DNA from: Omnitrophica bacterium GWA2_41_15 | GTDB lineage: Bacteria; Omnitrophota; Gorgyraeia; Gygaellales; UBA12090 | Direction: 5' to 3' | Assembly (NCBI GenBank): GCA_919902675.1 | Contig: CAKKRH010000009.1 | Location: 21,035 to 85,034 of the forward strand | DNA: 64,000 bases | Shown here: one piece after another, positions 3,930 through 55,532 of the stretch | Layout: every line of letters begins with the position of its first letter | Position numbering within the stretch: position 1 is the first letter of the stretch | Notes under the pieces: generated by a model | What the model was told of the DNA's origin: nothing | The model's database searches: none | What the model saw: only the letters and a program-made list of their open reading frames with translations | Translations under genes and position numbers: made by a program

Positions 3930-5267
3930 TCAGCTAATTCTTTCCGCGATAAGGCCGTCCTTATGAATCTTTAGCGGCCGGACATTAATGATTGTATTTA
4001 CCGAAATCTCCGGACTCTTGCGGAGAAATACCTTGATATAATTTCCGCTGTGGCCGGGTAAAAATCCATCATCCGCGAAGCCGCCTTGCGATTCAACTAA
4101 TACTTCCAGATTTTTACCAATATACTGCCGGCAGAAATCCCGCGCTAATTCCTGAGCCAATTCCCGCGTCTCTTTTATCCTGTCTTTGACCATCTCAGGC
4201 CTCACTGTTGCCGGAAATCTCCAGGCGGCCGTATTCTTGCGCGGGCTAAAAGGAAAGATGTGTATCTTTGCCGGGCGTGTTTCTCTTAAAAAATCAAGGG
4301 TATTCTTAAAATTTTCCTCTTCTTCTCCGGGAAAACCCAGCATAATGTCGGTAGTCAACCCAATATCCGGCACAAGCCTCCTTAGCTTAAGGATTAAATC
4401 ACGGCAATCTTCAACTGATGCCTTGCGGTTCATCAACTTCAATAGTTTATCATCCCCGCTTTGAAAAGGAATATGCAGATGAGGCATCAGCTTCTTAGAA
4501 GAAGCCATCTTTTCTATCAGGCAATCGCTGACATCCAGGGCTTCAATTGAACTAAGCCGGATACGCGAAATCCCGTCAATCTCTTCTAAGGTTTTAATAA
4601 CCTCAACTAAGCCGTCTTTAAGGCCAAGATCCTTTCCATAAGCGCCTAAGCAAATCCCGCAAAGCACTATCTCCTTATAGCCATTCCCGGCTAAACCCCT
4701 GGCTTCCTTAACTATCTCAGCCAAAAGCCGGCTGCGGGAGGAACCGCGTAATTTGGGAATTACGCAGTATGAACAGCCATTATCGCAGCCATCCTGAACC
4801 TTCAAGAAAACCCGGGTATGCTTATGGAAATTGCTGATGGTTGGTTTTTCAGTATCGGCAGGCCCCGTTAGAAGCCTTTTGCTACTTCCAGATTGCTCTA
4901 CAGTTTCCAACGGGGCAGGCGCCAAGCCGCCATCCTTTAAAATAAAATCGGCGAGACAATCCTTCTCTTGGTTACCTAAAACCCCTGTTACTCCCTCCAT
5001 CCGCTTTAGTTTCTCCGGATCGTTTTCCGCGCAACAGCCGGTAACAAAAACCCGGGCCCGAGGGTGAGAGCGATAGAGTTTGCGAATCTCCTCTTGAGAT
5101 AAAGTATCCGCCCTGCGGGTAACCGCGCAGGTATTCACTATATACACATCCGCGCCAAGCAAATCATTATTCTCCCTGAATCCCAGCTCGATCATCCTTT
5201 CCCTGAGAGCCTGGCTTTCATATTGGTTAACCTTACAACCTAAAGTCTTAACCTCAAATGTCTTCAT
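3930..5267 (-). CDS. mtaB: tRNA threonylcarbamoyladenosine methylthiotransferase MtaB (radical SAM MiaB family)
   Basis: N-terminus KTLGCKVNQYESQAL, radical SAM CDNGCSYCVIP, C-terminal TRAM-like region. Confidence 0.8.
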   Translation of the reverse strand: MKTFEVKTLGCKVNQYESQALRERMIELGFRENNDLLGADVYIVNTCAVTRRADTLSQEEIRKLYRSHPRARVFVTGCCAENDPEKLKRMEGVTGVLGNQEKDCLADFILKDGGLAPAPLETVEQSGSSKRLLTGPADTEKPTISNFHKHTRVFLKVQDGCDNGCSYCVIPKLRGSSRSRLLAEIVKEARGLAGNGYKEIVLCGICLGAYGKDLGLKDGLVEVIKTLEEIDGISRIRLSSIEALDVSDCLIEKMASSKKLMPHLHIPFQSGDDKLLKLMNRKASVEDCRDLILKLRRLVPDIGLTTDIMLGFPGEEEENFKNTLDFLRETRPAKIHIFPFSPRKNTAAWRFPATVRPEMVKDRIKETRELAQELARDFCRQYIGKNLEVLVESQGGFADDGFLPGHSGNYIKVFLRKSPEISVNTIINVRPLKIHKDGLIAERIS

Positions 5268-6042
5268 AATATGACGTGAATAAACGCGAAAACGCGATAA
5301 CGCTGATTGCCGCGGTATCTACCTTCAAAACCAAATCCCCCAAAGAGACCCCTATGCAGCCGTTTTCCTTGGCTAATTTGATTTCCCGCCCGCTAAAATC
5401 ACCTTCCGGACCGATAAAAATTATCAATGAAGAGGGCCTGGAATCGCAAAAAATCTCTTTTAGGGATTTATTCCCTGGGCCTAAATGCGGAATAACCGCT
5501 AATTCATAATTCTTAACCTGAGAGACAATTTTGTCAAATCCACTGACCGGCTTGATTTCCGGAAGTTTTATCCTGCCGCACTGCTTAGAGGCCTCAATCG
5601 CGATCGCCTGCCAGCGCTTCAGCTTTTCTTTAGCCTTCTCAGGAGAATATTCAACTATGGTTCTTTCGGTCTTTATAGGTATAATCCTGTCCACTCCCAG
5701 CTCCACGGTCTTTTCAATAATATAGTCCATCTTGACTTTCTTGGGCAGGGCGCAGGCTAAAGTCAGGTCAAGCTTTATAGACAGAGCTTTTCCGGCTCTA
5801 ACTACTGATGGTTCGACTATGCTCACCATCAGTCCTGAGCGAAGTCGAAGAACTGACAGCTCCGCCTTGTCTTTGGCGATATCGTCAATCACGCATTCAT
5901 ACTCCTGGGACTCGCCGTCAAAAACCACCACCCGGTCTCCTTTTTTAAGACGTTTAACCGAGGACAAGTGATGAATCTGGCCGGGGTCTAAAATAATTAT
6001 TCTATTACCGGTTATATTCGCGCGAGGGCAATAGATACGCAT
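5254..6042 (-). CDS. rsmE: 16S rRNA (uracil1498-N3)-methyltransferase RsmE
   Basis: 262 aa. PUA-like N-terminus (HHLSSVKRLKKGDRVVVFDG) and C-terminal SPOUT region (IFIGPEGDFSGREI). Contains an in-frame repeat insertion. Confidence 0.85.
   Translation of the reverse strand: MRIYCPRANITGNRIIILDPGQIHHLSSVKRLKKGDRVVVFDGESQEYECVIDDIAKDKAELSVLRLRSGLMVSIVEPSVVRAGKALSIKLDLTLACALPKKVKMDYIIEKTVELGVDRIIPIKTERTIVEYSPEKAKEKLKRWQAIAIEASKQCGRIKLPEIKPVSGFDKIVSQVKNYELAVIPHLGPGNKSLKEIFCDSRPSSLIIFIGPEGDFSGREIKLAKENGCIGVSLGDLVLKVDTAAISVIAFSRLFTSYYEDI
5805..5856. repeat. 48-bp hairpin element plus CTGA direct repeat, inserted in frame in rsmE
   Basis: CTGATGGTTCGACTATGCTCACCATCAGTCCTGAGCGAAGTCGAAGAA followed by CTGA. 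Differs at one of the first 46 bases from the copy at 9425..9476. Stem CTGATGG/CCATCAG. Translated as SGLMVSIVEPS. Confidence 0.85.
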
Positions 6043-6113: not shown

Positions 6114-8414
6114 TTGTCAATAATGCCCATCATAATCTTCTGCTTAGGGTTAGGTTCAATTATCTCCCAGCTTGTCTTCCTGCGCGAACTGCAAACCACC
6201 TTTCAGGGGAATGAGCTATCCTTGAGCCTGATACTATTCTCCTGGTTGTTTGGTTCCGGAATAGGAGGCCTCTTAGGATCTTTTCTTTCCTCAAGGAAAG
6301 AAAAGTCTATCCATCCGGATTACCTCAAAAATTTATTAAGCCTCACCCTGCTATTGTCCGCTTTGTGGCTTTTTATCAGCCTGTTCCTCAGCCGCGGCTT
6401 AAAGCCAATTTTATCCATCAGTCCTTTTGAAATACTCCAGCCCGGGCAGATACTGCTGATTTCAGCCATAGTTATAGTCCCTCAAACAATTACCGTGGGA
6501 CTATCCTTCATCCTTATCTGTTCAATTATCCAAAATCCACTCAAGGCTTATCTTTTAGAGGCCCTGGGGGCGTTCTTCGCCGGACTATTAAGCCTTATCC
6601 TGATAAAATATTCTAACAGCTCTCAAATCATCTGGGGAATCGCGATAATTTACACCGCCTCCGGCCTCCTGCTTTTAAATAGAAAACGCCCATATTATCG
6701 GCTCCTGCTAATAATGTGGACCTTCTGCGTTATTTTATCTCTGACCATGCTGACCAAATTCCAGAAGGAGACACAAAATCTGCGCTTTGGGCCCCAAAAA
6801 CTTATTTACTCCACGGATTCCATCTACGCTAATATCGCCATTGTCAGAAACAATAACCACTCCTACAGCCTTTATGAAAACGGTAAGCTCTCCTTCTCAA
6901 CTGAAGACAGCGAATCCATAGAGGAATGGACCCATATGCTTTTACTCAGCCACCCCGCCCCGCGAAAGATTTTGCTTATCGGAGGAGGTGTTTCCGGGGT
7001 CATCTCCGAAATACTCAAACATCCAATTGAATCTATAGACTATCTGGAGCCGGATAAAAAGCTGATAGAAGCTGTCCTGAAACATATCCCCCAAAGCGCC
7101 TCTTATGGCCTTAAAGATAAGAAAATAACTATACATAATCAAGACGCCCGAATTTTCATCAAAACCGCTCCTGACAAGCCAGAGGGCGGTGGTTTGGCTT
7201 CCAATAGCCAAAGCCATAAATACGACTTAATTATTCTAAATTTGGGCGGCCCCTCAAGCCTTCAGTTAAACCGTTTTTACACCAAAGAATTTTTTGAAGA
7301 AATAAAAAAGATCCTAAACCCGGAAGGCAGATTCTGTTTTTCTTTTGAATCTAAAGAAGATATCCTCTCCGGACAACTCCTGAAATATAACACCTGCCTG
7401 TATAAAAGCGCCCAATCGGTATTCCCTTATCTTCAACTTATTCCCGGCGAACGCCTGACCCTGATTGGCTCAAGCCGGGCACTACCCAAGATTGTTCCGG
7501 AAGACTTAAGCCAAAGATTTAAAGAAAGAAACATCCTAACCGCATACTTTACGCCATACCATATCAAGGCAAAACTATTCCGGCAGGAATATATCCAAAA
7601 AAAACTGGAGGAAAATTCTCATATTACCGGCATAAGCCCCGTTAGAGATATGACACCAAAGGTATCTGGACGCCCCGCCTTTGGCGGGGCTATCTCTAAC
7701 GGGGTAAACCGCGATTATCATCCTTTGGGTTTTTTCTCTTATTTGGCCTTACGGGGAAAACAAGGCTGGCTGAATTTCAACCGGATTTGGGAATTCGCCG
7801 GAAAAATAAAACTGATTTATGGCTTTGGCTGTATGGAAAGCCAAACCATTGCCTTACTGGCTTACTGGATTAGCGCGGCCCTAATCCTCGCCGGTTTTGG
7901 ACGCGGGCATATTCTTAATCTGTCCGTCTTTTCCAGCGGCTTTTACGGCATCAGTTTAGAAATAATTATCAGCCTGCTCTTTCAGATAAATCTGGGCTTT
8001 CTTTATTATCGCCTGGGGATGATTGTGGCTAATTTTATGTTAGGGCTTTCCTTAGGGGGTATCCTGTTTATACGCTTAGAGAAAACAGGGCTATCCTGGA
8101 AAAGGGCGTTATTCTTATCGGAAATAGCCTTAGGAATTATTTCTCTCTCTTGCGCGTTTATCTTAAAAGATAACCAACTCGCTTATTTCCTGCTTACCTT
8201 ACTGGTTGGAATTATAATCGGCTTTGAATTCGGGATATTCTACAGCCGCGAAAACACAATTACTGTTTATATTTTAGATTTGTCCGGGGCCTGTCTGGGG
8301 AGCCTGCTCACCGGCTTAATCCTTGTTCCGGTATTAGGCGTATATAACACCTGTTTACTTATTTCATCCGGCAAGTTTATCAGTGCTTTTTTTCTGAGAA
8401 TACAAAAGCGCTAA
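6114..8414 (+). CDS. Polytopic membrane protein fused to a spermidine synthase-like (SAM-dependent aminopropyltransferase fold) domain
   Basis: 766 aa. Has N- and C-terminal TM bundles. The central domain reads ILLIGGGVSGV..DYLEPD..IHNQDARIFI..YDLIILNLGGP..FYTKEFFEEIKKILNPEGRF. This is the only plus-strand gene. Confidence 0.7.
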   Translation: MSIMPIIIFCLGLGSIISQLVFLRELQTTFQGNELSLSLILFSWLFGSGIGGLLGSFLSSRKEKSIHPDYLKNLLSLTLLLSALWLFISLFLSRGLKPILSISPFEILQPGQILLISAIVIVPQTITVGLSFILICSIIQNPLKAYLLEALGAFFAGLLSLILIKYSNSSQIIWGIAIIYTASGLLLLNRKRPYYRLLLIMWTFCVILSLTMLTKFQKETQNLRFGPQKLIYSTDSIYANIAIVRNNNHSYSLYENGKLSFSTEDSESIEEWTHMLLLSHPAPRKILLIGGGVSGVISEILKHPIESIDYLEPDKKLIEAVLKHIPQSASYGLKDKKITIHNQDARIFIKTAPDKPEGGGLASNSQSHKYDLIILNLGGPSSLQLNRFYTKEFFEEIKKILNPEGRFCFSFESKEDILSGQLLKYNTCLYKSAQSVFPYLQLIPGERLTLIGSSRALPKIVPEDLSQRFKERNILTAYFTPYHIKAKLFRQEYIQKKLEENSHITGISPVRDMTPKVSGRPAFGGAISNGVNRDYHPLGFFSYLALRGKQGWLNFNRIWEFAGKIKLIYGFGCMESQTIALLAYWISAALILAGFGRGHILNLSVFSSGFYGISLEIIISLLFQINLGFLYYRLGMIVANFMLGLSLGGILFIRLEKTGLSWKRALFLSEIALGIISLSCAFILKDNQLAYFLLTLLVGIIIGFEFGIFYSRENTITVYILDLSGACLGSLLTGLILVPVLGVYNTCLLISSGKFISAFFLRIQKR
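7637..7704. repeat. 68-bp nested palindrome inside the CDS
   Basis: The outer 14-bp arms CCCCGTTAGAGATA / TATCTCTAACGGGG are perfect. The inner hairpin is GCCCCGC-CTTTG-GCGGGGC. The motif TCTAACGGGGTAAA(CC) recurs at 14209..14222 and 29371..29386. Confidence 0.85.
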
Positions 8415-9969
8415 AAATATATTTTTCGGTTTTCGCGTCCTTCCAGGAATCAGCAGGCAAGCCTGCCTTATGGACGCATAAATTAGAAAGAAATTCCTCC
8501 CTGCTCCAGCCGGTCTCGTGAGCCACCTGCGGCAAAAATACCCCCTGGCTCCACCCCCGCTTGATCAGCAAGCCGTGCGTGCCTAACTGAAACTCAAGCG
8601 CATCCTCAATCTTTTTTAAAGGCGAAAGGACTGAAATTTCAATCTCAATATCCTTAAGCTCCTGCTTAGTTACCGGCTCAAAGCGGGGATCTCCGGTTGC
8701 CGACTCTATGGCCATATCCCGGATGGTTTCAAAAAGAGGCTTCTGGCTGATAATATTACCGATACAGCCTTTTAACTTACCTTGCTTATGGATAGTTACA
8801 AAGGCGCCGTTAATAGCATTTAGCTGAGGATCATCTTCGCTAAAATCCAACCTCTTCCCGCTGGTTACATATTCCTGGATGGTCTTACGGGCAATTTCCA
8901 ACAATCGCGCCTTCTGCTTATCGTTCAACATAGCCGTTTCTCCTGTTTTATCCTTGCCGATAAAAGCCGATAAATATCCCACTGTCCAGAGCCCTTCTAT
9001 TTTTTTACCGCTAACTTGCGCTGAATTTGTATGCCCCAAAAAATTTATTTGATTATAGCCTAAATTTTGGGCAATGAGCATCGCCGTAACCACCGGCAAT
9101 CCCCCGCACATCTGAATTGAGCCGTCTTTTAACTTCGCGTAAGTATCCCGGGCGGACATATTTTCCAGATAAGATAAGGTCAGTTTATCTATTTTTTCGG
9201 TCTCCCGGTAATCGTGGCTATGGCAAAGGTCGGTAGAGGCAATCACTAAAACATCGGAAGTCTCGCTGATTGCCTTGCTTAATTTATCCGCCAAATAACT
9301 TAAATCCTGAAAATCCGCGTCTCCAATCAAAATGGGAACTATCTTAAAATCATCCAGTGTCTTTTGTAAAAAAGGAAGCTGGACCTCAACGGAATGTTCT
9401 TTTTCAAAAGCCTGAGGGATAAAGCTGATGGTTCGACTATGCTCACCATCAGTCCTGAGTGAAGTCGAAGGGCTGATATTCTGGGAAGGAGCGATTATTT
9501 TTTCTGTAAAATCAGAGTCTACTTCTATGTCTCCCAATGGGGTCTGAAACTTCCCCACCGGTGACACTGAGACTCCCTTAAAATAATACTGGTGGCTGGG
9601 CCCCAAAATCACTACGGTCTTATAATGGCGGCCTTCAATCAATTTGTAGCCTAAGGCGGCGGTAGGGCCGGAAAAATCATAGCCGGCATGGGGAGAAATC
9701 AGGACGGATATCTCACCTTTAAAATATTCCGGATTAACCGCCTTGAGCAGATTTTCAACTTTAAGATTAAGCTCATCCTTACCAGCGGGATAAAACTGCC
9801 CGGCCACATTCGGCTTCTTTATCTCATCGCCAAAGACTGGGCCGTTAAAGTCAAAAAGCGCGCCCCCAAGAAAGAAAATTGCCACTGTCGCTATTCTGAG
9901 CGGGGGTGGCAAGGCATTAAGCCCAGATACCGACGATTTTCTCCTGACAAAACCTGCAATGTCCATCAA
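8380..9969 (-). CDS. AmmeMemoRadiSam system protein B (Memo-like) fused to protein A (AMMECR1 domain), with an N-terminal hydrophobic anchor
   Basis: 529 aa. Memo-type ISPHAGYDFSGPTAA and EHSVEVQLPFLQ. AMMECR1-type GAFVTIHKQGKLKGCIGNI. Sits next to the radical SAM partner. The start is uncertain because it overlaps the upstream gene by 53 nt. Confidence 0.8.
   Translation of the reverse strand: MMDIAGFVRRKSSVSGLNALPPPLRIATVAIFFLGGALFDFNGPVFGDEIKKPNVAGQFYPAGKDELNLKVENLLKAVNPEYFKGEISVLISPHAGYDFSGPTAALGYKLIEGRHYKTVVILGPSHQYYFKGVSVSPVGKFQTPLGDIEVDSDFTEKIIAPSQNISPSTSLRTDGEHSRTISFIPQAFEKEHSVEVQLPFLQKTLDDFKIVPILIGDADFQDLSYLADKLSKAISETSDVLVIASTDLCHSHDYRETEKIDKLTLSYLENMSARDTYAKLKDGSIQMCGGLPVVTAMLIAQNLGYNQINFLGHTNSAQVSGKKIEGLWTVGYLSAFIGKDKTGETAMLNDKQKARLLEIARKTIQEYVTSGKRLDFSEDDPQLNAINGAFVTIHKQGKLKGCIGNIISQKPLFETIRDMAIESATGDPRFEPVTKQELKDIEIEISVLSPLKKIEDALEFQLGTHGLLIKRGWSQGVFLPQVAHETGWSREEFLSNLCVHKAGLPADSWKDAKTEKYIFSAFVFSEKKH
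9425..9476. repeat. Second copy of the 48-bp hairpin element plus CTGA, in frame in the Memo domain
   Basis: Same sequence as 5805..5856 with one substitution in the first 46 bases. It is read in a different frame here (SLRTDGEHSRTIS). Confidence 0.85.
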
Positions 9970-11546: not shown

Positions 11547-11622
11547 TGGTGGACCCGAGCGGAGTCGAACCGCTGACCTCTACAATGCGAATGTAGCGTT
11601 CTCCCAGCTGAACTACGGGCCC
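11547..11622 (-). tRNA. tRNA-Ala (anticodon CGC), CCA encoded
   Basis: Folded by hand. Acceptor GGGCCCG/CGGGTCC with G3:U70, D arm GTTC..GAAC, anticodon stem CTACA/TGTAG with loop TTCGCAT, T arm AGCGG-TTCGACT-CCGCT, then ACCA. Confidence 0.9.
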
Positions 11623-22806: not shown

Positions 22807-23375
22807 TCTTTTACGTTAGTGAACCAAAAACTCATACTTTCCTGCCTGGATACCTGGGTGTCCAAACGCCCGGCTATGCCGGTAGCATTGATAAGCACGG
22901 TGAGCACATTGGGCTCATTGGGAAAAACATAGCTAAAGAGTATCTGTGGGTTATATTTACTGTCAACCAGGGTTTCGTTGATAACCTCCAGACTTACGGG
23001 GTTAGTGGCATTGCGGATAAAGTTTCCCTGTCCGTCAATGTAATAACAATAACCTAAATTATCGCCAAGTTTATTTGGGGTGATGTTATAGATGTCTGCC
23101 TCGCCTTCGAAACAATACGTTCTGTTCTCGGATAATTTAAGCGGACTTTCAGTAAACAAAGAGGCGTTCTCCACCCTCACCGCGCTTAAGGTATGCAGAT
23201 GGATATTCTCCAGGGCATAGGCAATCTGCAAGCCGACATTACCACGCTCGATATTAGCCCTGGTCTGGGCAAAAATAAAATTATACCCGGCCATTGCCGC
23301 GGCCAAAGTAACCCCGCAGAGTACAATCGCTATGATCAATTCCACTAAAGTCAGGCCGAGTTCTTTTCTTATCAT
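22803..23375 (-). CDS. Cassette 1, gene 5: minor-pilin-like protein (prepilin-type N-terminus)
   Basis: MIRKELG|LTLVELIIAIVL when started at the internal ATG. The ORF track extends the frame to 23408. Confidence 0.7.
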   Translation of the reverse strand: MIRKELGLTLVELIIAIVLCGVTLAAAMAGYNFIFAQTRANIERGNVGLQIAYALENIHLHTLSAVRVENASLFTESPLKLSENRTYCFEGEADIYNITPNKLGDNLGYCYYIDGQGNFIRNATNPVSLEVINETLVDSKYNPQILFSYVFPNEPNVLTVLINATGIAGRLDTQVSRQESMSFWFTNVKE

Positions 23376-23416
23376 AAGCCAGGTCTTACGCTCCGGGACT
23401 AAGACCAAACCCCCTG

Positions 23417-24337
23417 CTACTTCACTTCGGTAGCAAGTATGGATAATATTGCTTTTCTAAGAGTGATTCTGGTGTTCGTGTATCCTGTGGTATATTCATA
23501 ATCATCGGTAGTTTTATTCACAGTCGGCCGATCATAATACCATTTTATTTCAATTCTATTATCATTTCTGGAAGTCACGTTTTCTATTACCGCCACGTTA
23601 TTAAATGAAGCCTGAGTTCCTATAGGCGTGCGCGCCTCAACACCAGCAATGTAGGGGCTGGTGAGACCGTTACTAAAAAAACAGGCTGAATAAATAGTAT
23701 CAATAGTATCAATCTCTGTCGCGTTGTCAGTGCTGTTTGTGCCAACGCTCACGCTATAAGCAACCTCTATATTCTTTTTTGTCGCGAAGTCAAGCTGAGT
23801 GCCGTTAAGCATTAATGGCTCGCCAACAGACTCACCTATGGTTGTGTAGTTTTCCAATATAGAAGTGTCGGTTTGATTGGCAAAAGGAACCTCATCGCCA
23901 GCGCTATTAAGGATATTCTTTGCAGCTGTATGTGAGAATGGATAAGGAACAATATTGGTCAGGCGGATATTTTTAGTATCTAAGCCTCCATTGCCATCTT
24001 CCTCCTGATAAGAAACCACCACCTCTATGTCCCTATAGGGCATAGTTGTATTTGTGACGTTTTTGGTAACCACTATGGCAGTCCAATTATAAAAATCCTC
24101 CAAATCCTCCAAATCCTCCTGGCCCGACAGCGAGAAATTATTTAAAATATCATAACCACGTTGTGAATATTCTTCCATCTTACTGGAAGCTAGCCCCATA
24201 GCCTGGCTGCGGAATTCCGCCTGTCTCAAAAAACGCTTGCCGGCAACCACCGTAACCCCCAAAGCCCCCAAACCCACCATTATCAGCAAAGCACTGACAA
24301 TTACCTCCAGAAGAGTAAATCCTTTTTCCTGATCCAT
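23417..24337 (-). CDS. Cassette 1, gene 4: PilV-like minor pilin, sequon-rich
   Basis: 306 aa. MDQEKG|FTLLEVIVSALLIMVGL. Many N-x-S/T sites. Confidence 0.75.
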   Translation of the reverse strand: MDQEKGFTLLEVIVSALLIMVGLGALGVTVVAGKRFLRQAEFRSQAMGLASSKMEEYSQRGYDILNNFSLSGQEDLEDLEDFYNWTAIVVTKNVTNTTMPYRDIEVVVSYQEEDGNGGLDTKNIRLTNIVPYPFSHTAAKNILNSAGDEVPFANQTDTSILENYTTIGESVGEPLMLNGTQLDFATKKNIEVAYSVSVGTNSTDNATEIDTIDTIYSACFFSNGLTSPYIAGVEARTPIGTQASFNNVAVIENVTSRNDNRIEIKWYYDRPTVNKTTDDYEYTTGYTNTRITLRKAILSILATEVK

Positions 24338-24352
24338 CTAGTTTATAATTCC

Positions 24353-25357
24353 TTACTCGTCTTGATTTGTAACAGGAAAAACGGAAACTATCAGATTGCG
24401 CTGGTTCTTCGGGCTTCTTATTCTCATTGATGTCTCATTATACCATCTAATCTCAAAATAAACATCATTGGGAATCCTCCCATTGGCAAAGTCAGAAGGA
24501 ATAAGCACATAACCACCGGTAATGGTAGGATCACCGATATTAGTCACACTCCCCTTACCAGCCGAAGGAACGGTCATCTCGGCTATCTGGCCCACAGGAA
24601 CAAACTCCCCGGAAACATATGAAACAGTCCCATCATCCGCAACCTGTTTAACTCCGTTACCGGGCGCGTCACTTTTAACATACAATTGAGTCTTAAGCGG
24701 CCCCTCGATAAATTCCTGATAGGAAGTACCATGATGGGGATGACAAATAAAAGGCCATACCGCGACCAATCTGCCGGAACCCTCCACGCGCACGGTCCAG
24801 GTAAAGGATATTTTAGTTATATTCCTGTAGCCCTTAGCCGATCCTGTAGTCCCTTCTAATCCGGGGATAAGTTGATATTCACCTTTGACTAAACTAACTG
24901 TGCTTGGCTGCGGAAGACCGCTGGTAGTATAGCCATTTTCTTTACAAGGAAAATATACATTCGGGCAATTACCGCCCCCATCGCAGGTCCTGATGGTTTG
25001 AGCGCAATTACTATAATTAGACTCACCGTCATCCACACAACCAGAACAATTATAAGGATACAAGTTCTTAGCCCATTTCTCGCCAGCAACTACACTTGTG
25101 GATGTCCAGCGATCCTTTCCTCTCCATTCTCCGTCAATTTGTTCATTTAAATAATCCGCGCATGTAGGGTTATCGTCGCTGTCATCATCATAGAAATATG
25201 GAAACATTGTCGGTTCCAGATAAGCGTCATCCGTTCCAATAAGTTCCTCAATAGTTAAAGGTTTGCTGGGAGTAGTTACCGCTTCATCCGCGGCAAGGCA
25301 GCAACCTACCATTAAAAAAATAATAAAAACTACTCCGAAAAAATTTATCTTTTTCAT
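24353..25357 (-). CDS. Cassette 1, gene 3: secreted Cys-containing protein, unknown family
   Basis: 334 aa with a signal peptide. Its paralog is at 29412..30407, with a conserved C-terminal half (GQIAEMTVPS.GKG..NIGDPTITG.YVL.P). Confidence 0.75.
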   Translation of the reverse strand: MKKINFFGVVFIIFLMVGCCLAADEAVTTPSKPLTIEELIGTDDAYLEPTMFPYFYDDDSDDNPTCADYLNEQIDGEWRGKDRWTSTSVVAGEKWAKNLYPYNCSGCVDDGESNYSNCAQTIRTCDGGGNCPNVYFPCKENGYTTSGLPQPSTVSLVKGEYQLIPGLEGTTGSAKGYRNITKISFTWTVRVEGSGRLVAVWPFICHPHHGTSYQEFIEGPLKTQLYVKSDAPGNGVKQVADDGTVSYVSGEFVPVGQIAEMTVPSAGKGSVTNIGDPTITGGYVLIPSDFANGRIPNDVYFEIRWYNETSMRIRSPKNQRNLIVSVFPVTNQDE

Positions 25358-25416
25358 CCTAAGGCCCTCCTTAAATGAACACCGAACAAAAGAACAAATA
25401 AATGCTTAGCCAAGAA

Positions 25417-27099
25417 TTATTCTCTCACCGTGGTAATAATTAAACTAATATGGTTAATCTCCACCTGATAATTTGTGGCCTCATCCTCAGAAGTAGTAGT
25501 TGGATCATCTATATTCCTATTCATAAAATAATAAACCCGGACTTCATAACGCTTCCCTGGCCAAAGGTATGGGCCAGGCGGAAAGGTATCTTTAGAAACA
25601 AGGGTTGTTCCGTATATAGAAAACGCGGCATTTAAACTCTTTTGATGAAGAGCGCTGCTGTAAAGCGTAGTGCCAAAAGTAGGGTCAAATACTTTAATCA
25701 TAGTATAGAACTTATCGCTCGAATTCTTTGCCTCACCAAGGGGTGTGGTATTAATCTGCCAAACTACATTATAAGACTCACCGGTCTTAGCTACAAAACT
25801 ATACCGCAGATTGCTATCTATTTCCTCAAAACAACTATCTGTATTTCCCAGGAGGCATTCTTCCGCGAGCTGACGAAGCGTAGCGCAATCACCTGCCGTG
25901 GCATTATAACACTCAGGACTAACGGTTAATCTCTTTTCACATTTTCTATCTTTGCAATTCTGCACATATCCGTCTGAGCAAACCGCGCGCTTACAGCACT
26001 CCACCCTATCCTTGCATTCCTCGTATTCATCGGCATAATCAGTGCACGTATCAATACAATTCTTAAATGTTGAATTAAGGCTGTAGATATAAGACTGAAT
26101 ATAGGGCGTAGTGGTACAGGTTGCGGTTGCCGTGCAGGGAGTAGGAGTGCAGGTTGGACAAGGAGGAGGAGAAGGGCAAGGTGTCGGAGGAGGAGGACAA
26201 GGCGGAGGAGTAGGACAAGGCGGCGGCGTGCAAGGTATAGGACAGTTCTGAGGTTGCGAACATGTCGTAGGAGCGCAGGATGACAAGCCTGAACTGCACG
26301 AGGGAGTCGGGGGGGTGCAGGTTGGATAACACTGAGCATTACATGACTGCGTGGTTGTGCATGAGGGGGTAGTATTAGCCCACACATAGGCTATATCATA
26401 ATAAGGGGCTTGATCGCATCTAAGCGGACCGGGATTCGAAGAACAAGCCTGAAAAGAAGGACTACTGCTTGGGGTGCAAGTTGATGTTTTCGGGCAGGTC
26501 CAAACCCTATTCTTACCGGTTCCTATTATAGCGCATCCTGAGCAACCTGACGGCTCCAGCTCATCACTAAATTCATCCGGACAGCCCCGCCTTTTCAGGC
26601 CATAAGGACTACCGCTATCTACCGAACCATTAGCATTACAACTAAGATACGGTTTATTCTGGCCGACACAACCATCTGAATCATCGTCGCGATTTCGCGA
26701 ACCACAATCACTACAACTATCATCAGTATCTTCATAATCACACTTGGTTAACCCACAATCTTCGATTTTAAAAGGATTCTCAGTGCAAGCATAATCATCC
26801 GTTATATCGTTTTCACTGCATTTAATTACTTTAGGAGCACCAGTCAAGCAACAATTCGGACAGCTTTCACTTAAGCTAACGCAGTAATCACACCTAAAAG
26901 CCCTCCTGGATTGGGTTGAACAGGCGGCACAAAAAATATCCTCTTTTGTCAGATCACCGCTATCATAATCTTTTGAAACTATCTGAAGGTCATGAGCAGA
27001 GGGCAGATATCTTATGCGTTTATCTTTAGAATAGGCCTGGCTGCTAAAGAAAGCCGAGAACACCAAAAGTAATGCTAAAGCCTTCTTATTCTTTACCAT
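25417..27099 (-). CDS. Cassette 1, gene 2: large cysteine-rich secreted protein with a Pro/Thr/Cys low-complexity insert, unknown family
   Basis: 560 aa with a signal peptide and dozens of Cys residues in CxxC or CC patterns. Its paralog is at 30427..31770. The start overlaps the pilin stop (caATGGTAAag). Confidence 0.75.
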   Translation of the reverse strand: MVKNKKALALLLVFSAFFSSQAYSKDKRIRYLPSAHDLQIVSKDYDSGDLTKEDIFCAACSTQSRRAFRCDYCVSLSESCPNCCLTGAPKVIKCSENDITDDYACTENPFKIEDCGLTKCDYEDTDDSCSDCGSRNRDDDSDGCVGQNKPYLSCNANGSVDSGSPYGLKRRGCPDEFSDELEPSGCSGCAIIGTGKNRVWTCPKTSTCTPSSSPSFQACSSNPGPLRCDQAPYYDIAYVWANTTPSCTTTQSCNAQCYPTCTPPTPSCSSGLSSCAPTTCSQPQNCPIPCTPPPCPTPPPCPPPPTPCPSPPPCPTCTPTPCTATATCTTTPYIQSYIYSLNSTFKNCIDTCTDYADEYEECKDRVECCKRAVCSDGYVQNCKDRKCEKRLTVSPECYNATAGDCATLRQLAEECLLGNTDSCFEEIDSNLRYSFVAKTGESYNVVWQINTTPLGEAKNSSDKFYTMIKVFDPTFGTTLYSSALHQKSLNAAFSIYGTTLVSKDTFPPGPYLWPGKRYEVRVYYFMNRNIDDPTTTSEDEATNYQVEINHISLIITTVRE

Positions 27100-27464
27100 T
27101 GGCTACATTCCTTCCAGATCGTGTTGTTACGATTAGTGATAGTCATATTCATCCCGCTGCAGGCCAGACCAGAACCCTGGCGCTTAGCCGTGGCGTTAAA
27201 ACTTGGGCTAGTGGTGGTGGCAATAGAATAAGTAAAGCTATCTCCTTCCAAGGTAATCCCTAAATTCGCGGTATCGTTAGTATATGCTCCCTCATCCAGA
27301 TAATATCTCTGCTGGGCAGTGTAGATTAGGCGCAGGTTGGCCTCGGCTTCTTTGGCCATATTTTTTTCTGAAGACCGGCTAAAATTGCCCATATTCAGGC
27401 TAACCAGAATTCCGATAATCACTAGAACCACTAAAAGCTCAATCATGGTAAACCCCGTTTTCAC
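27093..27464 (-). CDS. Cassette 1, gene 1: type IV pilin-like protein (GTG start)
   Basis: 123 aa. MKTG|FTMIELLVVLVIIGIL. C-terminal Cys pair. Confidence 0.8.
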   Translation of the reverse strand: MKTGFTMIELLVVLVIIGILVSLNMGNFSRSSEKNMAKEAEANLRLIYTAQQRYYLDEGAYTNDTANLGITLEGDSFTYSIATTTSPSFNATAKRQGSGLACSGMNMTITNRNNTIWKECSQW

Positions 27465-27580
27465 TCAATAAGCTCCCTTAGGCGCGATAAATCGCGCCGC
27501 TACCTACTTGCACAAATTGCTACGATAAATCGCGCCGCTTAGCGAAACGAATAACCACAACAAGCTTTTAAAAACTCTTG

Positions 27581-27619
27581 AAATAAAAAAGCCAAACTCT
27601 CCTTCGTAGGATAGCTTGG
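27581..27619 (-). terminator. Intrinsic terminator forming the riboswitch expression platform (copy 1)
   Basis: The minus-strand RNA forms CCAAGCUAUCCU-ACGA-AGGAGAGUUUGG (12 positions, one mismatch), followed by CUUUUUUAUUU. Confidence 0.65.
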
Positions 27620-27646
27620 TTTATGCACCTTTTTGAAAGCTGCGTT

Positions 27647-27736
27647 GTCGGTGCGCCAGGCTACCCTATCCTTCCTTAAAAGACTTAGGTCCTTTAGCTT
27701 TGCGCCATGCGGTTTCCCGCATTTTGCCCCGGCCTT
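27647..27736 (-). ncRNA. GEMM-I (c-di-GMP-I) riboswitch aptamer, copy 1
   Basis: This 90-nt RNA contains GGCAAA, a 6-bp helix capped by GAAA, GGCGCAAAGC, a CCUAAG tetraloop-receptor half, and GGGUAGCCUGGCGCACCGA. The blocks are colinear with the Vc2 aptamer as I recall it. Confidence 0.65.
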
Positions 27737-27800
27737 AATTTCCTATGCCGGCCTGCCGCCTTCTTAGATTACACGGCAGATTTTCGGATGTTGTAATTAA

Positions 27801-27829
27801 AGTATACACCATTAAATAACAAATTGCAA
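27801..27829 (-). promoter_or_regulatory. Promoter TTGCAA-17-TATACT for cassette 1
   Basis: Hexamers read on the minus strand with a 17-nt spacer, about 60 nt upstream of the aptamer. Confidence 0.5.
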
Positions 27830-27974
27830 TAGTAAAACAGTATTTTCAAGAAAACGCTTTCTTTGCCGCTATTGCGTCGAAATCTCATATTTGGACATCA
27901 AGGTAAAACAGAAAATAGCCATTCTTTACGATTCATTTTACCGTTAGTCTTTTATCTCTTATCTGAACGTTCGG

Positions 27975-28449
27975 CTATGGCCGTGGCATTAATAAGCGCA
28001 TGAACATGTTAGGCTCATTGCCGGACACATAACTAAAGGTTATTTGTGGCTTATATCTACAGTCAAACAGGGTTTTATTGGTAGTCAGGCCACTGGTAAT
28101 ATTAGTAGCATTGAGCATAAATTTATCACCTGAACCAAGGTAATAATAATCTATACTATCGTTATACTTATTAGGCGTGATATTATAGACGTCTTGCTCA
28201 TCCAAGAAACAAAATACAAACGCGCTTGATTTACTTTCGGTAAACATAGAAGCGTTTTCCACGCTCACCGCGCTTAAGGTATGCCGATGGATACTCTCCA
28301 TGGCGTAGGTGATCTGCAAACTGGCATTGCCGCGTTCCATACTACTCTTTATTTGAATAAAAATAAAGTTATGCCAAGCCATGGCCGCGGCGCTGAGCGC
28401 AATCGCTGCAATCAATTCCACTAAGGTCAGCCCGCTCTTTTTTTAACAT
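27975..28449 (-). pseudogene. Cassette 2, gene 5: minor-pilin-like gene, damaged at both ends
   Basis: ATG at 28449 followed by an A7 run gives MLKKER... out of frame. Deleting one A restores MLKKSG|LTLVELIAAIAL. The C-terminus ends early relative to the 22803 paralog after a local indel. No gene 6 equivalent follows. Confidence 0.65.
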
Positions 28450-28464
28450 AAACCCGGGTTTTAT

Positions 28465-29403
28465 TTAGTCCACCTCAGTAGCGAGTATGGATAATTCGGC
28501 TTTTCTCAGGGTAAGATTAGTATTCGCGTATCCTGTGGTATATTCATAATTACCGGTGGTCTGATTTATTGTCGGCCGGTCATAATACCATTTTACCTCA
28601 ATTATATTATCGCCGCGGGGAGGCACGCCCTTTAACACCACCATATTATTAAATGAAAGCTGGGTTTTTATGGGGGTGCGCGTCTCTACACCGGTGGCAT
28701 TGGTAGTGGTGCCATTACCATAAAAACAAGTTGAATAGATAGTATCAATAGGCTCTATCTCTGCCCCGTCATCAGTGCTGTCTATGTCCGCCGCAACGCT
28801 ATAAGAAACCGCTATATCTTTAGTGGTCGCGAATTCAAGCTCATCGTTTTTCAGCCTTAATTGACCTACAGTTTGATAATTAGGTAAAATAAATTTAGCA
28901 TTTTGAATAGCAAAAGGAACCTTCGCGCTGCTACTCGGAATGGCCCTTGAAGCTGTATGCGCCGTGGGATAGGGAACAATATTGGTCAGACGGATATTTT
29001 TAGTGTCTAAGCCGCCGCGGCCGTCTTCCTCCGGATAAGAAACAATCACCTCCATATCCCTATAAGGTATAATTGTAGCATTGGTAGTGTTGCGGGTAAC
29101 CACACTGACGGTCCAGTTATAAAAACCTTCCCGGCCCGATTGATTACCGCTTAAAACAGCATAACCCCGGGCCGAATATTCTTCCATTTTGCTGGTAGCC
29201 AGGCCCATAGCCTGGCTACGGTATTCCGCCTGCTTCAAAAAACGCTTGCCGGCCACCACGGTAACTCCGAAAGCCCCCAGCCCAATCATTATCAGCAAAG
29301 CGCTGATCATCACCTCCAGAAAAGTAAACCCCGATAGAAGCATCTTATTTCTTCCAGGCTGTTCCATAGCTTCTAACGGGGTAAACCCCTTTTCCTGACC
29401 CAT
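28465..29403 (-). CDS. Cassette 2, gene 4: PilV-like minor pilin with a partly duplicated N-terminus
   Basis: 312 aa. MGQEKGFTPLEA followed by MEQPGRNKMLLSG|FTFLEVMISALLIM. Paralog of 23417..24337. Confidence 0.7.
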   Translation of the reverse strand: MGQEKGFTPLEAMEQPGRNKMLLSGFTFLEVMISALLIMIGLGAFGVTVVAGKRFLKQAEYRSQAMGLATSKMEEYSARGYAVLSGNQSGREGFYNWTVSVVTRNTTNATIIPYRDMEVIVSYPEEDGRGGLDTKNIRLTNIVPYPTAHTASRAIPSSSAKVPFAIQNAKFILPNYQTVGQLRLKNDELEFATTKDIAVSYSVAADIDSTDDGAEIEPIDTIYSTCFYGNGTTTNATGVETRTPIKTQLSFNNMVVLKGVPPRGDNIIEVKWYYDRPTINQTTGNYEYTTGYANTNLTLRKAELSILATEVD

Positions 29404-29411
29404 CTAATTTA

Positions 29412-30407
29412 TTACTCCTCACTCCTCTGGCTGGTAACGGGAAAAACAGTAACTACCAGATTGCGCTGGTTCTTCGGGCTTTTTATCCTCATTGAGGTCT
29501 CATTATACCAGCGGACCTCAAAATCAACGCTCAGAGGAACCCTTTCTGTGGCAAAATCAGCAGGAACGAGCACATAACTGCCGGTAATGGTAGGATCCCC
29601 AATGTTACGAACCCCACCCTTTCCGGATGAAGGAACGGTCATCTCGGCTATCTGCCCCACCGGGGCATACCCATCGTTAAAAGGACTTGGATATCTTGTG
29701 CCTTTAACATACAATTGAGTCTTAAGCGGTCCGGCGGGAAATTCCTCATCGACAGTGGCGTGAAAAGGACTGCAAAGATAAGGAAATACCGCGAGTATCC
29801 TCGAGGAGGCCTCTAAGCGCACTGTCCAGGAAAAGAGTACTTTGGTGATATTCCGATAGCCTGCGTACAGTTGGACGTTCCCGGACAATCCAGAGATAGC
29901 CTGATATTCACCTTCATCTAAATCTTCAGTACTTTCATTCGGCACACCATCAGTATCCCAACCGTTTTCTTTACAAGGTTTATATATATCTTGACATTTG
30001 CCTTCACTATCACAAGTCCTTTTGGCTCGAGCACAATTACTATAGTTGCAATATATACCTACTTTCAGACTACAATCAGTATTAAGAAATTGCTTTTGAG
30101 ATTCGCCAGTTTTATCTTCATATGGATTGCTATAAGCAGCCCATATGCCTCCAGCTGTAGATATGGGCGTCCAACGGTCCTTTTCGCTCCACTCGTCAAT
30201 ACATTTGGAGGTTTCACCAAGGCCTCCATCAACATAATTGTAGAATTTCGGAAACATGGTCGGCTCCAGATAGGCGTCCTTCTTTCCGATAAACTCCTGA
30301 ATAGTTAAAGCTTTACCCGGGGTGGTTACCGTTTCATCCGCGCCAAAACCACACCTGACCAAAAAAAAACTTATAAAAATCATCCCGGAAAAAAATATTT
30401 TTTTCAT
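29412..30407 (-). CDS. Cassette 2, gene 3: secreted Cys-containing protein, unknown family
   Basis: 331 aa. Paralog of 24353..25357. Confidence 0.75.
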   Translation of the reverse strand: MKKIFFSGMIFISFFLVRCGFGADETVTTPGKALTIQEFIGKKDAYLEPTMFPKFYNYVDGGLGETSKCIDEWSEKDRWTPISTAGGIWAAYSNPYEDKTGESQKQFLNTDCSLKVGIYCNYSNCARAKRTCDSEGKCQDIYKPCKENGWDTDGVPNESTEDLDEGEYQAISGLSGNVQLYAGYRNITKVLFSWTVRLEASSRILAVFPYLCSPFHATVDEEFPAGPLKTQLYVKGTRYPSPFNDGYAPVGQIAEMTVPSSGKGGVRNIGDPTITGSYVLVPADFATERVPLSVDFEVRWYNETSMRIKSPKNQRNLVVTVFPVTSQRSEE

Positions 30408-30426
30408 CTTAAAACCCTCCTTGAAG

Positions 30427-31770
30427 TCATTCTCTTACCCGAGTAACAATTAGACTCATCCGCGTAATTTCTACCTCATAAGAAGTATCCTCATCATCAT
30501 TCATAAAGTAATAGACCCGAATCTGATAGCTTTTTCCCGGGCTAAAAGTACCTTTAGAAATAAGAGTTGTCCCGTATATGGAAAACGCGGCGTTTAAGCT
30601 CTTCTGATGCAGATTACTGCTATAATAAACTATCGTGTTAGACGCGGGATCTACCACCTTAACCATAGTATAAAACTTAGCGTTTTCGTCATTTTTAGCC
30701 TCTCGCAGGGGTGTGGTATTAATCTGCCAGATTATATTGTAGGCCTCACCGGTTCGAGCCACAAAATCATAGTACATATTGCGGTCTATTTCCACAAAAC
30801 ATTCATTCGTACCACCCTCAAGGCATTTTTGCGCATTCTGGTTGAGCCGGGCGCACTGGCCTGCCGTAGCCTCATAACACGCAGGCTTGACGGCTATTCT
30901 CTTGGCACAACCAGAGTCAGTACAATTAGCTTTATACCCGGTTTCGCAAACCGCGTGCTTACAGCACTCCACCCTATCCTTGCATTCCTCGTAGTTATCA
31001 GCATAAGTAGTGCAGGTATTAATGCAAGTCTTAAACGCGGAGTTAAGCTTATATTCATAAGAAGCACCTATAGCAGTTACCTCATAAAAAGAGGGCAGGT
31101 CATCACATCTGGATGGACCGAAAGTCTCGGAGCAAGGCTGAAAAGAAGGGCGGCTGTTGGGAGTGCAACTTGGTGTTTTCGGACAGGTCCAAACCCTATT
31201 TTTACCGATTCCTGTTATAGCGCATCCAGAGCAACCTGCCGGTGCCAGCTCAGCGCTAAACTCATCCGGACAGCCTCGATTCTGCAGGCCATAAGGAGAG
31301 CCGGACAAAACTAGACCTTTGCTGCATTTAAGAGTATGACATTGAGTCTCATCGTCATTCCCTCGCGAACCGCAATTAACGCAGTCATTATCGCTAGTTG
31401 TATAATCACATTCGGTTTGCGGGCAATCTTTGATCTTAAAAGGAGCCTCGGTGCAGACATAATCAGCCGATGTATCATCTACGCTGCACTTAATTACCCT
31501 GGGAAGAGTAGCAGTCAGGCAGCAATTCGGACACAATTCCTTTAAATCAAGACAATCATTACATTTTTTAGCTAATCTAAATAAACCTGAGCAACGGGAA
31601 CAATCAATCTCAGCTACTGCCTTTTCACCGGCAAGATAATCCCGTGAAACCATCTCAACCTCATGATTAGCCGGCATGTATTTAATACTCCTATCTCTTG
31701 AATAAGCCGGATGGTTAAAAGAAGCCAGTAACACCAGCAGTAAAATTAAGGCCTTTTTATTTTTTACCAT
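30427..31770 (-). CDS. Cassette 2, gene 2: large cysteine-rich secreted protein (no Pro/Thr/Cys insert)
   Basis: MVKNKKALILLL signal from the ATG at 31770, which has the same ATGGTAA overlap with the pilin stop as copy 1. The ORF track starts 9 nt upstream. Confidence 0.75.
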   Translation of the reverse strand: MVKNKKALILLLVLLASFNHPAYSRDRSIKYMPANHEVEMVSRDYLAGEKAVAEIDCSRCSGLFRLAKKCNDCLDLKELCPNCCLTATLPRVIKCSVDDTSADYVCTEAPFKIKDCPQTECDYTTSDNDCVNCGSRGNDDETQCHTLKCSKGLVLSGSPYGLQNRGCPDEFSAELAPAGCSGCAITGIGKNRVWTCPKTPSCTPNSRPSFQPCSETFGPSRCDDLPSFYEVTAIGASYEYKLNSAFKTCINTCTTYADNYEECKDRVECCKHAVCETGYKANCTDSGCAKRIAVKPACYEATAGQCARLNQNAQKCLEGGTNECFVEIDRNMYYDFVARTGEAYNIIWQINTTPLREAKNDENAKFYTMVKVVDPASNTIVYYSSNLHQKSLNAAFSIYGTTLISKGTFSPGKSYQIRVYYFMNDDEDTSYEVEITRMSLIVTRVRE

Positions 31771-32165: not shown

Positions 32166-32243
32166 TCAATAAGCTCCCTTAGGCGCGATAAATCGCGCCG
32201 CTTAGCGAAACGAATAACCACAACAAGCTTTTAAAAACTCTTG

Positions 32244-54371: not shown

Positions 54372-55532
54372 TTAGTTATATTCCGCGTTTATCCTGATAT
54401 ATTCCGGGGTCAGGTCTGAGGTGTAAACTACGGCTTTACCCCTGCCAAGCCTTAAATCTATCTTGACTATTATATCCTTTTTCCTGAAAGAATCACCCTC
54501 TATTTTTATTTTTTCTCTTACCTCTACCCCGGATGCCCCCACCGCCGCCACTATCCTTCCCCAGTTAGTGCCTCCGCCGTAAACAGCTGTCTTGAAAAGA
54601 TTGGAATTGGCCACGGCCAAAGCCGCTTTTTTAGCCTGCGCGTCATCCTTAGCCCCAGATACCTGAATAGTTATAAACTTGCCGGCTCCCTCAGCATCCA
54701 AAATAATCATCTTGGCTAAACCCAGGCAAATTTCACCTAAGGCAGTTTTAAATTTAGAGAAATTAGGCGTGCCTAAACAGATTTTCTTGTTTTCCGCTAA
54801 GCCATTAGCTAAAATAATCACGCTGTCATTAGTGCTCATACATCCGTCAATAGTAATCATATTAAAAGAATCCTCAACTGCCTGCCTTAATGCCTCTTTT
54901 AATGCCGAATACTCGATCAAGGCATCAGTAGTGATAAAGCAAAGCATTGTAGCACTTCGACTATGCTCAGCGTAACCCATATCCGGGGCAATCATTCCCG
55001 CGCCCTTGGCAATTGCCCCGATAGTTACTTTTTTTCCGCTTATCTTAAACTCCAGCGCTAAGGCTTTGGGCTTAGTATCGGTAGTCATTATGGCCTGGGC
55101 TGTCTTATTACCGCTATCTCTGTCTAAAAAACTCACTAAAGACGGCAAGGCCTTCTTTATCTTGGAGAAATCAAGCCGACGGCCGATAATTCCGGTCGAG
55201 GCAATCAGCACCATTTTTTTATCTATTCCTAATAGCCCCGCGCCAAGCGAAGCGGTAGACTTAGCCGTTTTCATTCCCGGCTTTCCGGTATAGCAATTAG
55301 CATTCCCGCTGTTGACTACTATAGCCTGGGCCTTTTTTGATTTTAGATGTTCCCGGCAAAGCTCAACCGGAGCCGCGGCAAACTTATTTTTGGTAAACAT
55401 ACCGCAGGCAAATGCCGGGACATCGGAATATATCAAAGCCAAATCCAGTCCGCCGGATTTCTTTATCCCCGCCCCTATTGCCTGAGACCTAAACCCCTTA
55501 GCCAGGGTTATGGCGTTCTTACGCTCTCTCAT
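54372..55532 (-). CDS. argJ: Bifunctional ornithine acetyltransferase / N-acetylglutamate synthase ArgJ
   Basis: 386 aa with the ATMLCFITTDA self-cleavage motif. It carries an 8-aa insert (GYAEHSRS) directly N-terminal to that motif. Confidence 0.9.
   Translation of the reverse strand: MRERKNAITLAKGFRSQAIGAGIKKSGGLDLALIYSDVPAFACGMFTKNKFAAAPVELCREHLKSKKAQAIVVNSGNANCYTGKPGMKTAKSTASLGAGLLGIDKKMVLIASTGIIGRRLDFSKIKKALPSLVSFLDRDSGNKTAQAIMTTDTKPKALALEFKISGKKVTIGAIAKGAGMIAPDMGYAEHSRSATMLCFITTDALIEYSALKEALRQAVEDSFNMITIDGCMSTNDSVIILANGLAENKKICLGTPNFSKFKTALGEICLGLAKMIILDAEGAGKFITIQVSGAKDDAQAKKAALAVANSNLFKTAVYGGGTNWGRIVAAVGASGVEVREKIKIEGDSFRKKDIIVKIDLRLGRGKAVVYTSDLTPEYIRINAEYN

Follow-up and report, generated by a model that had tools for sequence, protein, structure and literature searches.

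We analyzed 64,000 nucleotides (nt) of Omnitrophica bacterium GWA2_41_15 (contig CAKKRH010000009.1 of assembly GCA_919902675.1, positions 21,035 to 85,034; hereafter, the window), in which two unrelated genes carry nearly identical 48-nt palindromic inserts in frame. Both genes are located on the minus strand. The first, rsmE (5254..6042), encodes a protein of 262 amino acids (aa) with the Pfam domains PUA_4 (residues 18–64) and Methyltrans_RNA (residues 90–250). The second (8380..9969) encodes a protein of 529 aa that was recognized as a Memo-AMMECR1 fusion by Pfam domains. The best protein matches were from Candidatus Omnitrophota, as were all named genome records.

Insertion and translation of the element in two genes

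The repeat comprises a 46-mer, CTGATGGTTCGACTATGCTCACCATCAGTCCTGAG(C/T)GAAGTCGAAG, found on the plus strand at positions 5805–5850 (copy A, in rsmE) and 9425–9470 (copy B, in the Memo domain). The copies are separated by one substitution (C/T), and the number of recurrences expected by chance was zero (100 shuffles). Either 46-mer is followed by two further bases and then CTGA. A first-pass annotation, made from the sequence alone, had described the two copies correctly and had proposed a hairpin-forming insertion of 48 base pairs (bp) with a 4-bp CTGA target duplication. It overlooked the complementary TCAG at the centre of the element, which matches the flanking CTGA.

The order of parts, the same in all copies of the 48-nt element, is a-b-L-b'-a'-c-L'-c'-a, where a is the flanking tetranucleotide, a' its central complement, b/b' and c/c' are short stems, and L (TTCGACTAYGCTCA) and L' (TGAGCGAAGTCGAA) are conserved 14-mers that pair at 13 of 14 positions. 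In copy A, the left a (CTGA, 5805..5808) is the pre-existing target, seen as a single TCAG on the gene strand in two empty sites. The 48-nt insert (5809..5856, 72.8 bits with a covariance model) consists of b (TGG, 5809–5811), L (5812–5825), b' (CCA, 5826–5828), a' (TCAG, 5829–5832), c (TCC, 5833–5835), L' (5836–5849), c' (GAA, 5850–5852), and a (CTGA, 5853–5856). Copy B has its left a (CTGA) at 9425..9428 and its insert at 9429..9476 (72.6 bits), with b (9429–9431), L (9432–9445), b' (9446–9448), a' (TCAG, 9449–9452), c (9453–9455), L' (9456–9469, a TGAGT variant), c' (GGG, 9470–9472), and a (9473–9476). Within the 64 kb, the covariance model matched only these two full copies, a probable relic in argJ, and two distant relatives. 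A duplication of 5 nt (NCTGA) was considered and rejected: the base before CTGA repeats in each window copy (ACTGA, GCTGA) by coincidence, and across 85 copies it is part of the c' stem, which leaves a duplication of 4 nt.

Comparison with relatives confirmed the insertion and its 4-nt flanking repeat. Two RsmE homologs of 246 aa with 91–95% identity (P0001 and P0004) are without precisely the 16 inserted residues, which are present in a homolog with 85% identity (P0003). The segment is absent from the majority of aligned RsmE homologs. At the nucleotide level, locus L003 is an exact empty site, reading gagctgTCAGTagttag where the window has TCAGT, 43 nt, and TCAGT; L043 is a second exact empty site. 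For the Memo gene, the syntenic locus L002 (GCA_030674475.1) lacks exactly the 48 nt of copy B. A neighboring MiaB-like gene showed the reverse situation, being filled in L002 and L043 and empty in the window and L004, where it reads ccAACCATCAGcaat. This target shares a 9-nt microhomology, AACCATCAG, with the element end. HemC provides a further pair, with the element present in L100 and an empty site with one ATTGAT in L114. The flanking tetranucleotide thus occurs once in empty sites and twice in filled ones, and the insert length was exactly 48 nt at three sites with empty counterparts.

The combination of filled sites differs between the window, L002, L043, and L028: RsmE and Memo are filled and MiaB empty in the window, RsmE and MiaB filled and Memo empty in L002, and RsmE empty and MiaB filled in L043. 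Such a patchwork in closely related genomes is compatible with recent gain, with precise loss, or with the two together. The first-pass annotation would have been contradicted by distant homologs carrying the same segment. Human MEMO1 (PDB 3bcz) instead aligned with a gap at the Memo insert, as most RsmE homologs did at theirs. An assembly artefact was rejected, since the element is present in independent ENA, NCBI, JGI, and Logan assemblies.

The element is read in two different frames on the same strand. The RsmE translation is ...SVLRLRSGLMVSIVEPSV..., with the insert read as SVLRLRSGLMVSIVEPS; it occupies residues about 67–82 (LRLRSGLMVSIVEPSV), within the linker that joins the PUA domain to the methyltransferase domain. 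The Memo translation is ...ISPSTSLRTDGEHSRTIS..., with the insert (SPSTSLRTDGEHSRTI) just N-terminal of the conserved EHSxE motif. Peptides spanning the inserts would include ...SPSTSLRTDGEHSRTIS... and ...LRLRSGLMVSIVEPS.... These readings, SGLMVSIVEPS-type in RsmE and another frame in Memo, agree with those given earlier, as does the tolerance of the element in two reading frames, which extends to three across the element family. Copy A has no stop codon in four of its six frames, and the C-to-T change in copy B is synonymous in the frame that the gene uses. In the AlphaFold model of RsmE (mean predicted local distance difference test score, pLDDT, 84), the insert region is the only internal low-confidence stretch: residues 70–88 have pLDDT < 50 and lie between strand 60–68, the last of the PUA domain, and strand 92–98, the first of the methyltransferase domain. 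According to the model, the insert is a low-confidence loop joining two well-folded domains.

Short segments were also seen in two relatives. The Memo-AMMECR1 ortholog in L028 has the insert of the window and, in addition, two element-like segments, GSTTLATSE and INGSTSLTIKTGE, the latter close to the Memo/AMMECR1 junction; at the window's insertion site, L043 has SLSTSSLD. By sequence, these segments may be decayed copies of the element.

Anatomy and spread of the element family

Further copies, the absence of which would have spoken against a mobile element, were numerous. A scan of the GTDB species representatives with the left-half 23-mer found 21 loci, all in metagenome-assembled genomes (MAGs) of Omnitrophota or in MAGs automatically labelled Planctomycetales or Nitrospiraceae. 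A second pattern, in which the two conserved arms were fixed and all else was free, matched at least 120 loci in a metagenome collection. All collection scans together yielded at least 140 additional loci, the majority of them Omnitrophota-like. When GTDB genomes were scanned with a strict 28-mer, no match was obtained because the relatives have TCAA in place of TCAG; the source genome itself is apparently not one of the species representatives. Searches of Rfam, both at the gathering threshold and at E <= 10, returned nothing relevant; a full-text literature search with the four arm sequences returned no paper, and literature searches combining Omnitrophota with palindromic terms returned nothing relevant.

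Anatomy was counted in 85 distinct copies, and covariation was assessed in an ungapped alignment of 82 copies. The repeat unit of 48 nt equals L + X + L' + X', where the 10-mers X (b'-a'-c) and X' (c'-a-b) vary in sequence, each being the reverse complement of the other. L and L' have one constant mismatch, A·A on one strand and T·T on the other. The 3-nt stems b/b' and c/c' covary (TGG/CCA, TCC/GGA, CCC/GGG, CAC/GTG, TGC/GCA, and others) and are complementary in 80 and 79 of the 85 copies, respectively. The tetranucleotide a is a variable YYRR 4-mer (TTGA, CTGA, TCAA, TTAA, TCGA, CCAA, CTAA, TTAG, TTGG, TCAG, and more) that is identical on both flanks in 75 of 85 copies. Its reverse complement occupies the centre as a' in 72 of 85 copies, with at least 13 different YYRR tetranucleotides represented. 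Copies inside one genome have the same a, b, and c. The ends of the element are inverted repeats of imperfect match, TNNTTCGACT, with agreement at 8 of 10 positions.

Two overlapping sets of helices can be drawn from these parts. The helix ab/b'a' plus c/c' was paired at 97.3% and the alternative a'c/c'a plus b/b' at 97.8%, compared with 18–52% in slid-partner controls. All 10 stem pairs have changed on both sides, and G·U pairs are nearly absent; stem covariation therefore points to Watson–Crick complementarity at the DNA level rather than to RNA structure. The minimum-energy fold of the single-stranded DNA (DNA parameters) is a third arrangement, an L:L' hairpin that exposes b'-a'-c as a 10-nt loop (−9 to −12 kcal/mol, z = −2.6 to −3.8). 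The earlier description as a hairpin thus holds for palindromic folding and not for its number: the element can form three mutually exclusive helices, of which the two 7-bp helices are supported by covariation.

Copies also occur as tandem arrays, with three units in L034 (2962–3095, a ketopantoate-reductase-like gene) and two in L072 (868–953, FolD). Neighboring units have a single flanking tetranucleotide in common, and read-through of the arrays gives repeated IGTSTSLS.DGERSRT. A second class of copies has an 8-nt centre and no a, and lies inside larger conserved repeats on contigs with a GC content of 62–72% (L027, L031, L036–L038, L054, L056, and some 18 further loci, with FDYAHHALSEVEG as an example of the translations). 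The L/L' core therefore reaches beyond Omnitrophota-like genomes.

Open reading frames (ORFs) of at least 150 codons contained 46 of the 85 copies, in both orientations (54%, a biased estimate from a selected sample); about half of the copies were intergenic or at gene ends. Because the insert adds 16 codons and can be read in frames that lack stops, an intragenic copy at a tolerant site would simply be translated. One main frame per strand was used in 41 of the 46 copies, giving the hydrophilic peptide x[DNS][GPT]ST[ST]L..[GPA]ERSR[TRS]Ix. A second open frame, of the LRLRSGLMVSxVEPS type, was used in five, and the frame closed by TGA, which gives no peptide, in none. The probability of zero copies in the closed frame was 8e-9 and that of the 41:5 split 2e-8. 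Such a bias is the expected outcome of selection on the translated product and, as a pattern in the sequences, implies translation. It contradicts removal of the insert before translation, which was rejected.

Host genes included those for HisH-type GATase, PriA, formate–tetrahydrofolate ligase (FTHFS), AlaRS, Mfd, FolD, ArgRS, MnmA, DNA polymerase I, and cytochrome b. Some sites recurred. In PriA, the element lies at the identical codon in L026, L069, and L111 with different stems, and in one of these cases the A·A/T·T polarity is opposite with the stem order unchanged; an aminotransferase has same-codon copies with a flipped mismatch in L122 and L130. Judged from the sequences, each flip calls for two substitutions or else for mirror-image variants that inserted independently. 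Inversion of the whole element does not explain it, as the stem order is the same, and inversion between the arms would have swapped the stems too, which was not observed. The RsmE linker likewise holds an unrelated insert in homolog P0019. We read the repeated sites, on sequence grounds, as the result of a high insertion flux filtered to few permissive sites, although homogenisation of resident copies may also account for them.

A tRNA origin was considered and rejected. The T-arm of the tRNA-Ala gene in the window (11547–11622, minus strand), GGTTCGACTCCGCTC, is identical to b+L, GGTTCGACTACGCTC, at 14 of 16 positions. The partner of the T-stem is absent from the element, and the likeness may be due to chance.

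Target choice, rival explanations, and known elements

We consider it likely that the repeat is a small non-autonomous mobile element, built as a nested palindrome or double hairpin, that is targeted to a tetranucleotide and translated when it lies at a tolerant genic site. At the loci with empty counterparts, a pre-existing tetranucleotide was used, the net gain was 48 nt, and the tetranucleotide stands on both sides; the element has no coding capacity. The element would integrate at a genomic YYRR tetranucleotide (CTGA in this genome), after which a would stand on both sides, complementary to the central a'. A genic insertion in a tolerant loop or linker would be translated as 16 extra residues through its 16 stop-free codons, and selection would retain chiefly the hydrophilic-peptide frame and permissive sites.

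Several observations weigh against this interpretation or limit it. No transposase of the Y1/HUH, DDE, or RAYT (REP-associated tyrosine transposase; REP, repetitive extragenic palindrome) type was found by Pfam among 148 ORFs within 3 kb of copies, the only recombinases there being two Xer-like integrases. A search for an autonomous parent, as a long element bounded by L and L', returned only short or tandem arrangements. A scan of a viral contig collection found no copy. Copy number looks low, at one to four exact matches per MAG. As L and L' were fixed by the search patterns, their invariance comes from a selected and biased sample, as does the share of copies in ORFs.

How the site is chosen can be specified further with less confidence. 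The flanks track a' over at least 13 tetranucleotides, also within sub-families sharing b and c, and the simplest account that we infer from this analysis is site choice by pairing with a'. The target would be selected by the apical loop (b'-a'-c) of a single-stranded L:L' hairpin, and a postulated enzyme would move the element in trans. A single change in a' would create a new self-consistent variant; if so, one base change redirects insertion and matching flanks follow automatically. In its full form, this is a minimal transposon whose apical loop pairs with both the genomic tetranucleotide and its own ends, and whose A·A-mismatched, invariant L:L' stem is recognized by an enzyme shared across phyla. 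We put this forward tentatively, as less likely than not. An element that carries both copies of a and recombines at a homologous 4-mer is a rival insertion route that would give the same static pattern, with a' kept just to preserve the hairpins. In addition, two sites in L002 combine a' = TCAA with flanking CTGA; one strand then has a mismatch, and the other a G·T pair. This disagreement does not decide between the insertion models.

An ordinary miniature transposable element with inverted repeats (MITE) would require no guide. A DDE transposase would cut with a 4-bp stagger at YYRR sites that it prefers and produce a true duplication, and the match of a' to the flanks would arise from master-copy selection for two 7-bp hairpins. 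The element is indeed short, non-coding, and flanked by a 4-nt duplication shown by empty sites; it has imperfect inverted-repeat ends (TNNTTCGACT, 8 of 10), and the compensatory changes in b/b' and c/c' show that paired changes do get fixed in the family. A freely chosen target should, however, often disagree with a', yet the two agreed in 72 of 85 copies, and one a is common to all copies of a genome. Neither a transposase in the neighborhood nor a longer element with the same ends was found. We regard a MITE of this kind as unlikely.

Template switching without a transposase appears less likely still. Here, a nascent strand stalled during replication at a genomic a would jump to the a preceding another copy, copy the hairpin-prone element, and return at its second a, with precise loss by reverse slippage. 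A strong palindrome between direct 4-nt repeats, the 9 nt that the MiaB target has in common with the element end, the arrays of two (L072) and three (L034) units with one shared a, the precise absence in relatives, and the lack of a transposase among neighboring ORFs are all compatible with it. A microhomology of 4 nt is nevertheless scant if clean events are to recur at many sites. The mechanism gives no account of the conservation of L and L' in organisms from 36% to 72% GC, and leaves both the tracking of a by a' and the permanent A·A or T·T mismatch unexplained. A RuvC-type cleavage consensus was also tried and rejected, as it fits TTGA and not CTGA, TTAA, or TTAG.

A host function as a structured nucleic acid, either a protein-binding site in RNA or DNA or a regulatory hairpin with mobility secondary, hardly seems credible: stems are maintained by compensatory changes even within genes, orthologous copies in PriA and the aminotransferase keep L and L' despite flanking protein identity of about 60%, and about half of the copies are intergenic or at gene ends, but the near absence of G·U argues against constraint on RNA, Rfam has no matching family, copies are found in either orientation, in genes that are unrelated and at positions that do not correspond, close relatives manage without them, and the intact orthologous copies came from a search requiring intact L and L'.

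Among known elements, the mobile element proposed here behaves most like the Rickettsia palindromic elements (RPEs) with which the first-pass annotation had compared it. RPEs comprise about ten families of ~100–150 bp in Rickettsia (PMC10969869, summarising Ogata et al. 2000, 2002). Both are palindromic selfish DNA found in frame in many unrelated, often essential genes and also between genes, and both are translated as extra peptide segments in tolerant regions. The comparison stands for this behavior and fails for size, build, and phylum: the Omnitrophota element is 48 nt, a third of the RPE size, its host is not Rickettsia, it consists of two overlapping hairpins with a long alternative hairpin, and its defined 4-nt flanking repeat is matched by a complementary central tetranucleotide. 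It is an RPE analogue, not a member of the RPEs, set apart by host, size, and this architecture.

REP sequences and their doublets (REPINs) share with the element an inverted pair of short palindromes that folds into a long hairpin with a conserved mismatch, as well as non-autonomy and lineage-specific variants. They differ in being extragenic and in typically numbering tens to hundreds, whereas more than half of the sampled copies of our element are in ORFs and its copy number is apparently low; no RAYT gene was seen among the 148 ORFs near copies. Members of the IS200/IS605 family read cleavage and target sites by base pairing with an internal guide, depend on Y1 TnpA, and make no target duplication; as a rule, the left target is not the same as the right end. 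They and their miniature derivatives, the palindrome-associated transposable elements (PATEs), resemble our element in hairpin-bearing ends, insertion adjoining a specific sequence of 4–5 nt, and precise excision that restores the site, and internal-guide pairing would explain the covariation of a, a', and a. The Omnitrophota element has the same tetranucleotide on both sides, as a duplication or as its own right end, and Y1 TnpA was not seen among the same 148 ORFs. To our knowledge, a single central guide common to both ends has not been described for IS200/IS605.

Small hairpin repeats that add peptide segments to reading frames also include the intragenic bacterial MITE QMITE of Coxiella (PMC5896051), intragenic enterobacterial repetitive intergenic consensus (ERIC) sequences, and organellar coding palindromes of Nematomorpha (PMC6649704). 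Mitochondrial double-hairpin elements share the two-stem-loop layout and small size. All of these have other hosts and other sequences, the organellar ones being known only from mitochondria, and neither a target-matched central tetranucleotide nor a fixed 48-nt, 16-codon unit has been described for them. As far as the searchable literature and general knowledge go, three features, namely the fixed 16-codon unit, the overlapping double hairpin with a long alternative hairpin, and the a/a'/a match, are not described for these families.

Coding palindromes have so far been treated largely as a peculiarity of Rickettsia. The present element provides a second, independent case and indicates that they are not confined to that genus: an unrelated, much smaller element does likewise at large scale, core enzymes included, in a free-living or episymbiotic uncultured phylum. 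The STxL…ERSR and LRLRSGLMVS segments that recur in Omnitrophota proteins come from the element and are not homologous motifs; they will disturb alignments, trees, and domain boundaries. The copies also offer a natural map of sites that tolerate an insertion of 16 residues, and the three-way match of flanks and centre is a compact lead to possible target choice by base pairing.

Other inserts and repeats in the window

The relic in argJ (gene 54372..55532, minus strand) is an in-frame 24-nt insert (54954..54977, plus strand) encoding the 8 aa GYAEHSRS. It contains an exact 14-nt L arm (54956–54969; E = 0.01 for the match) and scored 22 bits with the covariance model (E = 7e-4). By sequence, it is probably a half-element relic. 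The insert corresponds to an 8-residue gap relative to PDB 1vz6, just before the autocleavage site. It lies one residue ahead of the A/T bond at which ornithine acetyltransferase is autoproteolytically cleaved, and would therefore end at the C-terminus of the alpha chain.

The ORF at 6114..8414, encoding a spermidine synthase-like membrane protein, has two other in-frame inserts that are absent from the L002 ortholog. The larger one (7635–7706, 72 nt) encodes 24 aa, SPVRDMTPKVSGRPAFGGAISNGV, and forms a nested palindrome in which CCCCGTTAGAGATA (7637–7650) pairs with TATCTCTAACGGGG (7691–7704) around an inner hairpin, CCCCGCC/GGCGGGG. The smaller one (7170–7211, 42 nt), PDKPEGGGLASNSQ, has the hairpin AAGCCA/TGGCTT. 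The RsmE homolog P0046 carries an inserted KPEGSGWQPNSQSH that is very similar to the peptide of the 42-nt insert, which therefore looks like another mobile family. Other, unrelated in-frame inserts were found in the Omnitrophota RsmE homologs P0019, P0020, P0040, and P0062; examples are KAVSAPLEIGCQRQPADTCGVLSLTG (in the same linker), SGPVRSLSSLSGCSVASNGAG, and GCGYWKPHHGLVANSCGNRKPHYGLVAN. On the basis of these sequences, coding inserts of several families appear to be in circulation within Omnitrophota.

Composite inverted repeats flank the rpsI-rplM operon (60542–60791 and 62316–62439). One module, ATCAATCC-TGAGC...CGAA-GGATTGAT, has the stem-and-loop-end design of the right half of the element with an extra loop hairpin, and its covariance-model score was weak (E = 0.045). 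Finally, the window contains a tandem duplication of about 5 kb (23100–27900 and 28200–32700, 72–99% identity), with a c-di-GMP-I riboswitch at the corresponding place in each duplicate (27647–27738 and 32461–32564, minus strand).

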